From the IMG/VR virus record IMGVR_UViG_2706794689_000016: a stretch of DNA of 14,260 nucleotides. One strand, given 5' to 3'. Numbering within the stretch: position 1 is the stretch's first letter; each line of letters begins with the position of its first letter. A program made the translations under genes and the position numbers. This stretch comes from a virus (lineage: Duplodnaviria; Heunggongvirae; Uroviricota; Caudoviricetes). A model generated the notes under the pieces. That model made no database searches, had not been told where the DNA came from, and saw only the letters and a program-made list of their open reading frames with translations. This document shows positions 5,245 through 7,243 of the stretch, piece by piece.

Positions 5245-5269
5245 ATAGCCTGCGCCATACGCAGGCTAT
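5245..5269. other. Perfect 10-bp stem / 5-nt loop hairpin in the racC-recE intergenic region
   Basis: ATAGCCTGCG-CCATA-CGCAGGCTAT, 5 nt downstream of the racC stop; a T-rich run (TTCTTTC) follows on the plus strand only. Confidence 0.5.
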
Positions 5270-5624: not shown

Positions 5625-5795
5625 TTAAAGTTCATGTGCCATCTGGTCTTTTTCGGCACAAGCTTCACTGCAATATTTTCTCGGTTCGTCTTTTGATAAA
5701 ATCCCGTGCATGAAGTGAAGCATTCTTTCAATAGCTTTGCTTTCTTCAACGTCTTTTTTGCAAAGGTGGTAAGCACATTTTATTTTCTTAGTCAT
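5625..5795 (-). CDS. ydaE: YdaE, small Cys/His-rich (putative zinc-binding) Rac protein, 56 aa; below the ORF-track length cut-off
   Basis: Hand translation of the minus strand from ATG 5795..5793: [12 protein letters not shown]… ending …EKDQMAHEL followed by TAA at 5627..5625. The start overlaps the kilR stop (TGATG). Confidence 0.8.
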   Translation of the reverse strand: MTKKIKCAYHLCKKDVEESKAIERMLHFMHGILSKDEPRKYCSEACAEKDQMAHEL

Positions 5796-6016
5796 CACCA
5801 TGACTCCGCCTTTACAGGTAAACCATCACGACCGAGGAAGACTTTAATCATGCGGTCAGTAATGCATGTTTTTGTGGTCAGGTTACGAATATATAGTTTT
5901 CGCTTTTTAATATTGTTTGCCGAGGCAATATATGTCCGGCCTTCATGAAGAACATAATCGCCAGGAGTCACACACTGACGTGGTATTTCATCAGTTCCGA
6001 AGTGATGTGCAATCAT
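5795..6016 (-). CDS. kilR: KilR, prophage-encoded killing protein/cell-division inhibitor
   Basis: ATG at 6016..6014 with GGAG 7 nt upstream; 73-aa product [73 protein letters not shown]; the ORF-track start at 6028 is a 4-codon upstream extension. Confidence 0.85.
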
Positions 6017-6190
6017 AATTATCTCCATTTTTACAAATGAACTTTGTTGATGCGGTGCCTGGTGCCTCCAGGTGACTGCAACCAGTTAACAATTACAGTC
6101 GGCTTTCCCACCCAAACCAATAAGGACTAACATGACTTTTAACTGTGCCACGTGCGCTTAGCCGCATTCACCGCATCACAAAATTCACTT

Positions 6191-6239
6191 TAAAAAGGGC
6201 GGACATCAGCCGAACTTCAAGAAAAAAACTGATGCCGCC
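6191..6239 (-). terminator. Candidate intrinsic terminator for leftward transcription, between the immunity-proximal genes and kilR
   Basis: Minus-strand RNA GGCGGCAUCAG - 19-nt loop - CUGAUGUCCGCC (11 bp with one bulged U) followed by CUUUUUA; the U-tract is present only in the minus orientation. Confidence 0.5.
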
Positions 6240-6457
6240 AGGACTACACACAGCAATGTCGTTATTTACAACCGGAGGCGCACTCCCACCATTTAAATTT
6301 AACAGACAAGACCGACTCTTTATGGATATCGGAAATGCGCCTTCGTGTTGTGCCCGGTTTTATTTCACCACCTCCGGGCTTCGGTGGTCTCGGCTATACC
6401 CCTACAGCGAGAGCTTGTGTTAACATTTCAATACCCTTACAGTTGAGAGTTATTGAT

Positions 6458-6946
6458 ATGTTGGATGTATTTACTCCATTGTTGAAACTTTTTGCTAACG
6501 AGCCACTCGAAATACTTATGTATACGATTATCATTTTTGGTCTCACTCTCTGGCTGATACCGAAAGAGTTTACTGTCGCATTCAATGCTTATACTGAAAT
6601 ACCTTGGCTCTTTCAGATTATCGTTTTTGCCTTTTCTTTCGTGGTCGCCATTTCCTTCTCAAGATTGCGAGCACATATTCAAAAGCATTATTCATTACTA
6701 CCAGAGCAACGAGTATTGCTTCGTTTATCTGAGAAAGAAATCGCTGTATTTAAAGATTTCCTTAAAACAGGAAATCTTATTATCACTTCTCCTTGCCGTA
6801 ACCCGGTTATGAAAAAATTAGAACGGAAGGGCATCATTCAACATCAGAGTGATAGCGCAAACTGTTCTTATTATCTCGTCACCGAAAAATACTCCCATTT
6901 TATGAAGTTATTCTGGAACAGCAGGAGTAGACGTTTTAATCGTTAG
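6458..6946 (+). CDS. sieB: SieB superinfection-exclusion membrane protein
   Basis: ATG 6458-6460 with GAGAG SD; 162-aa hydrophobic product MLDVFTPLLKLFANEPLEILMYTIIIFGLTLWLIPKEF…; an in-frame upstream ATG at 6335 would give 203 aa but has a weaker SD. Confidence 0.85.
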   Translation: MLDVFTPLLKLFANEPLEILMYTIIIFGLTLWLIPKEFTVAFNAYTEIPWLFQIIVFAFSFVVAISFSRLRAHIQKHYSLLPEQRVLLRLSEKEIAVFKDFLKTGNLIITSPCRNPVMKKLERKGIIQHQSDSANCSYYLVTEKYSHFMKLFWNSRSRRFNR

Positions 6947-7108: not shown

Positions 7109-7243
7109 TCACATCTTGTTGCTGTGTATAGCGACTTCTGCCTGCCAGAGATCCCAGTCGTTGCTGCGTAAAGCCTGCACAGCCTGGTTGTAAGTGATAC
7201 CGCAACAATCCATCAAATACTGAACTACTTCGTAATGCACCAT
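7109..7243 (-). CDS. ydaG: YdaG, small Rac protein of unknown function, 44 aa
   Basis: ATG 7243..7241 preceded by GGGGAGAG SD; product MVHYEVVQYLMDCCGITYNQAVQALRSNDWDLWQAEVAIHSNKM; the 60-aa track ORF starting at 7291 is an upstream extension without an SD. Confidence 0.8.
   Translation of the reverse strand: MVHYEVVQYLMDCCGITYNQAVQALRSNDWDLWQAEVAIHSNKM

Follow-up and report, generated by a model that had tools for sequence, protein, structure and literature searches.

We find that the hairpin lying between kilR and sieB in a Rac-type prophage is, with a probability a little under nine in ten, the Rho-independent terminator of the leftward small RNA KilS, and probably also the Hfq-binding 3′ module of that RNA. 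The hairpin is thus already known, as the annotated terminator of a northern-verified sRNA.

The window, by which we mean the whole 14,260-nucleotide stretch of DNA that was analysed, is by its sequence a Rac-type prophage of Escherichia coli: the region 5700–6800, in which ydaE to kilR are minus-strand genes and sieB a plus-strand one, matches an E. coli chromosome at 100% identity and MG1655 at 99.7%. The gap between kilR and sieB measures 441 nt (6017–6457), as the first-pass annotation of this DNA had given it. According to the ORF map and RefSeq, kilR (5795..6016, minus strand), which encodes an FtsZ inhibitor of 73 codons plus stop, lies downstream of the terminator, and sieB (6458..6946, plus strand) lies on the strand opposite to KilS. 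Should the sieB promoter be situated to the left of about 6190, the 5′ UTR of sieB would run fully antisense to KilS (6191–6457, plus strand); the sole consensus promoter-like site nearby (6507–6534, plus strand) is inside sieB.

A known small RNA ends at the hairpin

In the RefSeq annotation of MG1655, the ncRNA kilS (b4833, “small RNA KilS”) lies between kilR and sieB at minus-strand coordinates 1418405..1418502. With the window position equal to the K-12 coordinate minus 1412213, this gene falls at 6192..6289 (minus strand), in the same intergenic gap, and all of its 98 nt are identical to MG1655 (100%). KilS was predicted from Hfq RIL-seq and verified by northern blot (Bar, Argaman, Altuvia and Margalit 2021, PMC8175672); its level builds up in stationary phase, and none is detected in an hfq mutant (PMC8175672). 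The same study places the start site at 1418502 (Table S6) and the 3′ end at 1418405, assigns KilS to the class “kilR 5′ UTR” and concludes that it can come from a promoter of its own (PMC8175672). In the window, this in vivo 3′ end is position 6192, the last U of the tract that follows the stem. The annotation of KilS, together with a 3′ end on the U-tract, identifies the hairpin as the intrinsic terminator of a known sRNA. The first-pass annotation, which had expected a Rho-independent-type terminator on the minus strand and leftward transcript 3′ ends near 6190, is borne out on both points by the stem, the five U and the mapped end. The Term-seq supplement of PMC7815308, which is possibly incomplete, has no entry for kilR or for this coordinate.

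In minus-strand RNA the structure reads CUGGCGGCAUCAG-UUUUUUUCUUGAAGUUCGG-CUGAUGUCCGCC-CUUUUUA. The stem-loop (6198..6239, minus strand) is made of a 5′ arm, GGCGGCAUCAG (6239–6229), a loop of 19 nt and a 3′ arm, CUGAUG-U-CCGCC (6209–6198), in which U6203 is bulged; C6197, the U5 tail (6196–6192) and A6191 follow. The 11-bp stem, the bulged U and the CUUUUUA tail described at first pass all match the sequence in position. Besides the sequence itself, the structure is drawn from RNAfold, from covariation among relatives and from the alignment of the Rfam DicF model to 6197–6252. In a 71-nt context the hairpin folds at −19.5 kcal/mol (RNAfold, z −2.55, 4 of 200 shuffled sequences equally good), and the hairpin and tail alone reach z −4.0, a fold equalled by none of 200 shuffles (RNAfold); the free-energy check proposed for this strand thus comes out better than shuffled sequence. 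The earlier statement that the hairpin exists only in minus-strand RNA holds for the tail and fails for the stem. Plus-strand RNA forms the same stem (−17.1 kcal/mol, z −3.8) and has no U-run after it, whereas the U-tail and two extra G–U pairs occur on the minus strand only, and therefore the terminator is strand-specific and the hairpin is not.

The stem comprises 11 Watson–Crick and two G–U pairs, and its foot, five base pairs that are all G–C, leads through a single C into the U-tract, as expected of a GC-rich intrinsic terminator stem, with a tract just five U long. The loop, at 19 nt, exceeds the 3–8 nt that are usual in intrinsic terminators, and it shrinks to 4 nt if a weak inner 4-bp helix forms within it. 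A simple consensus terminator scan of the window did not list the KilS hairpin, because the loop limit of that scan was 3–8 nt. The long loop argues for moderate terminator efficiency, not against the terminator class, and in combination with the five-U tail it suggests a terminator of moderate strength; strong terminators have smaller loops and longer U-tails. Binding of Hfq to the tail (6192..6196, minus strand) is probable, given what is generally known of sRNAs and the reported dependence of KilS on Hfq.

Upstream of the start at G6289, the sequence can be read as a promoter-like extended −10 element, TGtTAAATT (−15 to −7; 6296..6304, minus strand); the −35 region is poor, and TGtTAAATT is conserved across KilS-class loci. 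From one start-site data set and this motif, we infer that TGtTAAATT is the putative promoter for the start site at 6289. An internal RNase E site (K-12 1418471; window 6258, minus strand), given in Table S6 of Bar et al. 2021 with reference to Clarke et al. 2014, corresponds to KilS nt 32, with a possible offset of 1 nt arising from the position convention, and lies directly 5′ of the seed discussed below. When full-length KilS is folded, part of this seed pairs with the 5′ end.

Silencing of kilR and recET

The hairpin had been likened to the λ tL terminator, as an insulator that halts repressor-proximal leftward transcripts before kilR and recET and thereby explains why recET is silent without sbcA mutations. 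As an account of what the hairpin mainly does, we consider this unlikely. Its orientation and position are right for the task: a leftward polymerase meets the −19.5 kcal/mol hairpin and its U5 tail 176 nt before kilR, neither an N-like protein nor a boxA was found that would override it, and the roles of insulator and of KilS terminator are not mutually exclusive. Yet the start site is just 98 nt upstream, and the RNA that ends at the hairpin is a discrete sRNA; furthermore, the homologous DicF terminator sits within the dicB operon, upstream of dicB. What stands of the tL-like stop is a leftward terminator ahead of kilR, and what is not supported is its purpose, since the RNA that ends there is 98 nt long with a start site of its own, and no long transcript from the repressor-proximal promoter.

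Published silencing of kilR also speaks against insulation as the main role. Shashni et al. 2014 (PMC4150792) describe the block to kil expression as trac, a Rho-dependent and strongly NusG-dependent terminator inside racR; Rac genes rise with the Rho inhibitors Psu and bicyclomycin, and failure of trac is reported to be lethal through kil (PMC4150792). Barshishat et al. 2018 (PMC5793797) report that OxyS toxicity requires kilR and that the coexistence of nusG and kilR is toxic. Because the published silencing of kilR thus falls to a Rho/NusG terminator in racR, the insulator reading is only partly supported. Induction by Rho inhibitors, the lethality of trac failure and the link between OxyS and kilR together suggest that transcription passes the hairpin once Rho fails; with Rho or NusG out of action, the hairpin would thus be leaky. 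Leftward transcripts derived from racR must traverse sieB in antisense before they reach KilS. The proposed fit to sbcA fares no better: the accessible literature, in which the sbcA mechanism has no mapped account, yielded no link of sbcA to the hairpin site, and we found no evidence linking the hairpin to recET.

Regarding antitermination, neither an N-like gene nor upstream nut boxA/boxB elements, as would mark an N-controlled λ tL, were found. No boxA consensus occurs in the window, and the small leftward ORFs match only DUF1391, UBA-like and HTH families in Pfam, none of them N-like, although divergent N proteins or put-type RNAs would evade both tests. This agrees with the earlier remark that no N-like antiterminator is evident, yet it does not make the hairpin the insulator. 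The 44-aa ydaG-like ORF at 7112–7243 (minus strand) has a match to UBA_4, a UBA-like domain, that narrowly clears the Pfam cut-off (E 3e-5).

In sum, the hairpin resembles λ tL as an intrinsic-type leftward terminator that separates the immunity region from the kil and recombination genes. It differs in that no N or nut was found in Rac, in that transcription starts 98 nt upstream of the hairpin end, in that its product is a trans-acting, Hfq-dependent sRNA, and in that the documented Rac barrier is Rho-dependent and located in racR. Insulation of the tL kind is at best a secondary role. Elsewhere in the leftward operon, a perfect 10-bp hairpin lies between racC and recE (5245–5269). We rejected the idea that it terminates leftward transcription close to recE: only the plus strand has the T-run, so the hairpin would end rightward (antisense) transcripts and not leftward transcription into recE.

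Homology to DicF and the downstream leader

At gathering thresholds, Rfam reports nothing in the window, and the matches to DicF, STnc100 and RprA are visible only in E-value mode. The DicF model (RF00039) aligns over its full length to 6197–6252 (minus strand) with 39.1 bits against a gathering score of 48 (E 6e-7), and STnc100 aligns to 6009–6195 (minus strand) with 35.5 bits against 47 (E 5e-6). In pairwise alignment, Rac and the Qin dicF terminator with its dicF–dicB spacer are about 85–90% identical. Similarity begins at the terminator base (TGGCGG...CCGCCCTTTTTAAAGTGAATTTTGTGATG) and continues as far as the start codon of kilR; the 5′ parts, which hold the seeds, are unrelated. Homology between the two prophages covers the base of the terminator (GGCGG...CCGCCCUUUUUA) and all of the leader as far as the division inhibitor's start codon, and both have the same order of sRNA, structured leader and small FtsZ-pathway inhibitor; a homologous terminator in synteny upstream of a prophage division inhibitor is supported by the Qin alignment and by the comparison of cassettes below. 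The Bouché laboratory could probably see this homology in the 1990s, and papers of that decade may have noted it.

KilS differs from DicF in its 5′ seed and in its loop, as it has no counterpart of the DicF loop segment predicted to pair with the ftsZ translation start. Against ftsZ −80..+60, the KilS seed and loop gave duplex z values of +0.3 and −0.2, that is, no significant pairing (RNAduplex with shuffles), and antisense complementarity to the ftsZ start was not found in KilS. It differs further in that its start site is mapped 98 nt from its end, whereas DicF is excised from longer operon transcripts. A promoter-like motif, TGTC(TG/G)TTAAATTT followed by GTGCGCYTCCGGTTGTG, is conserved in the family (window 6296–6310, minus strand; locus L001 2219–2231, plus strand). 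In Qin, TGTC(TG/G)TTAAATTT precedes the 5′ end of processed DicF by about 150 nt, a position which suggests that a DicF precursor of about 200 nt may be made from a promoter of its own.

From the KilS terminator to the kilR start codon extends a leader of 175 nt (6017..6191, minus strand), which is STnc100-like, aligns with Qin and is strongly structured (fold z −4.6), with a long closing helix that starts right after the U-tract. The closing helix is a possible RNase III substrate.

A second alternative takes the KilS 3′ end at 6192 to come mainly from RNase III cleavage in this helix followed by 3′ trimming, which would make the hairpin an element for stability and Hfq binding and not the site of RNA release. 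The long helix does follow the U-tract directly, with AAGUGAAUUUUGUGAUGCGGUG paired to CACCGCAUCAACAAAGUUCAUUU, and its sequence is conserved with Qin; Faubladier et al. are also said to have described, in 1990, DicF 3′ ends arising from both termination and RNase III cleavage. We regard this origin of the end, and the corresponding role of the hairpin, as quite improbable: a GC-rich stem followed by five U, with the mapped end on the last of them, is the signature of intrinsic termination, and the family keeps the CCGCCCUUUUU junction nearly unchanged while the rest of the hairpin varies. The KilS 3′ end could nonetheless partly reflect processing or trimming rather than termination.

The leader also bears a likeness to the STnc100 / PasD family (RF02076; Zhu, Shabalina and Storz 2026 preprint), matched below threshold over 6009–6195. 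The difference is one of arrangement, as the Rac domain lies downstream of a terminator and enters the kilR ribosome-binding site rather than a seed and terminator of its own. At other loci from E. coli and Shigella prophages (L152, 566–787, minus strand; L157, L129 and L154), an STnc100-like domain stands before a KilS-type seed and terminator; this order is the reverse of that in Rac, and an alignment of the full STnc100 model extends over the two parts (29 bits).

Conservation and cassette shuffling across prophages

A scan of viral contigs with a conserved 29-mer returned 120 loci. At least four classes of head occur 5′ of the terminator: DicF (UUUUCUGGUGAC), KilS (AUUGCUGUGUGUAGUC and close variants), a third class (CCAUGUUGAUUACC) for which we know of no name, and one odd locus. 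Inner stems and loops differ, and each design folds, at −10 to −22 kcal/mol; for seven inner-stem and loop designs from related prophages, z ranges from −4 to −5.5.

More than 10 stem designs, taken from E. coli phage contigs and from other Enterobacterales, retain the hairpin through compensatory changes. At stem positions 6–11, three to six standard pair types occur with pairing kept, in a stem register that was set by hand from minimum free-energy folds and leans towards structure. An automatic alignment of 19 family hairpins (MAFFT with RNAalifold) recovered only the invariant GGCGG/CCGCC base and no covariation, because loop indels break the register and the search pattern had fixed the 3′ arm; the stems were therefore registered by hand. 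The hairpin is a conserved RNA structure. That the inverted repeat should instead act as DNA, as a protein-binding palindrome or a recombination site, is barely credible even though it pairs on the plus strand too, given that the stem carries a bulge, that its G–U pairs become A–C mismatches on the other strand, that relatives alter the sequence and keep the RNA pairing including G–U pairs, and that the stem leads into a U-tail and a mapped RNA 3′ end.

DicF heads are usually followed by DicB as cargo, and KilS heads by KilR. Recombinants also occur, with a DicF head before KilR, a KilS head before DicB, and the third class before either. Mosaic loci among L005–L124 (for example L032, L044, L051, L101 and L103) have several terminator designs in mixed combinations. 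On this comparative evidence, the Rac locus appears as a shuffled cassette of sRNA, leader and division inhibitor.

A scan for the seed plus GGCGG, with one genome per species, found KilS-type units in Citrobacter, Enterobacter, Raoultella and Klebsiella spallanzanii, and also in Erwinia, Mixta, Buttiauxella, Izhakiella and others. In these other genera the terminator ends in CCGCCCUUUUU or a close variant in all but two units, and no clear terminator was seen at Serratia grimesii locus L137 and Erwiniaceae locus L153. None of seven related loci run through Rfam reached the gathering score of any family. At loci L129–L157 (for example L130, L132, L139, L155 and L156), which lie in prophage regions, the terminator hairpin is often far longer (GGCGGUACCNGG...CCGCGGUACCGCC). 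In other genera, an ATG that follows the seed was considered as the start of an ORF at a locus without a terminator, and was rejected, as folding places it inside this longer hairpin. KilS-type matches in a Chryseobacterium assembly and in a Nanosynbacter MAG look like contamination.

A seed shared with RprA

Directly downstream of the RNase E site, KilS nt 33–48 (6242..6257, minus strand) are identical to RprA nt 60–75 at 16 of 16 positions, and with flanking sequence the match is 24 of 26. A 35-nt KilS segment was compared by blastn with 5426 complete E. coli genomes, and the median genome has one matching place. Among the matches listed, rprA is the only annotated locus besides the KilS-type sites (24/26); among the genomes listed that have no Rac-type site, the matching place is rprA in every one. 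By scaling arithmetic, the E-value of 3 for 28 Gb amounts to about 5e-4 for a single genome.

The shared block is just about 26 nt long. The Rfam RprA model aligns to 6218–6329 (minus strand) with 28.1 bits against a gathering score of 70 (E 0.48), KilS lacks any equivalent of the RprA 5′ domain that activates rpoS, and the promoters and terminators are unrelated. What is shared, 16 of 16 by sequence, is the RprA seed (nt 60–75) that pairs with csgD site Ib and with dgcM. Compensatory mutations showed that the GCUG in the RprA anti-site Ib (nt 60–97) pairs with csgD mRNA (Mika et al. 2012, PMC3465796), and the same paper has RprA nt 45–75 pairing with ydaM/dgcM and cites a processed form, RprA60-105 (PMC3465796). 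The RNase E site of KilS, at nt 32, is at the position equivalent to the 5′ end of that processed form.

Duplexes predicted with RNAduplex were close for the two RNAs, at −24.2 (KilS) and −24.6 kcal/mol (RprA) for csgD at about −99..−83, −15.4 and −15.8 kcal/mol for dgcM at about +2..+14, and −18.8 and −18.7 kcal/mol for the 3′ region of yncL; these values come from short-seed runs with shuffles, as full-length sRNAs gave inflated long-loop artefacts. The target listed for KilS is yncL (Bar et al. 2021, PMC8175672), which RIL-seq and TRIC-seq both find as a target of RprA too (bioRxiv 10.1101/2025.09.11.675593), with the caveat that chimeric reads from the shared 24–26 nt could be mis-assigned between KilS and RprA. 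Similarly, one of the two northern probes for KilS covers the block in common with RprA. The words DicF and RprA are absent from the main text of Bar et al. 2021 (PMC8175672), and we found no mention of the link between the RprA and KilS seeds in the searchable literature.

Taken together, these comparisons raise the idea, to which we give even odds, that KilS may be a chimeric prophage sRNA in which a DicF-family chassis carries the seed and RNase E site of processed host RprA, acts on part of the RprA regulon and represents one allele of a recombining cassette. The identity with the RprA seed and the shuffled cassette are the parts that are possibly new.

Discussion

In the mechanism that we propose, the stem-loop and its five U would release most transcripts begun at 6289 and would supply their Hfq-binding 3′ end. 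RNase E cleavage at nt 32 would produce a form of roughly 66 nt whose 5′ end is the seed AUUGCUGUGUGUAGUC, and would free that seed from its partial pairing with the 5′ end. The KilS terminator would be leaky, letting polymerases from the KilS promoter or from upstream read through into the 175-nt leader and kilR; a leaky terminator at this place would therefore also serve as an attenuator in the kilR 5′ UTR, in parallel to the homologous DicF terminator ahead of dicB in Qin. The main barrier that silences kilR would be Rho/NusG-dependent termination further upstream, in racR.

The hairpin as originally flagged matters little, as it is the terminator of a known sRNA and the silencing of kilR has a published Rho/NusG explanation. 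The toxicity of kilR is the reason why Rho and NusG are essential in Rac+ strains, and the leak of the KilS terminator would accordingly set the output of kilR once Rho fails.

More would follow from a shared seed function. If KilS does use this seed, csgD, dgcM and yncL, and with them curli and biofilm, would come under the influence of Rac and many related Enterobacterales prophages without Rcs signalling. Rac+ strains, including K-12, would then have a second, Rcs-independent source of RprA-like regulation, which could confound the phenotypes of rprA mutants, and KilS would be a clear case of a phage copying the seed of a host sRNA onto a mobile sRNA scaffold. Seen as cassettes, these loci would be places where prophages exchange seeds, terminators and a division-inhibitor cargo of KilR or DicB.
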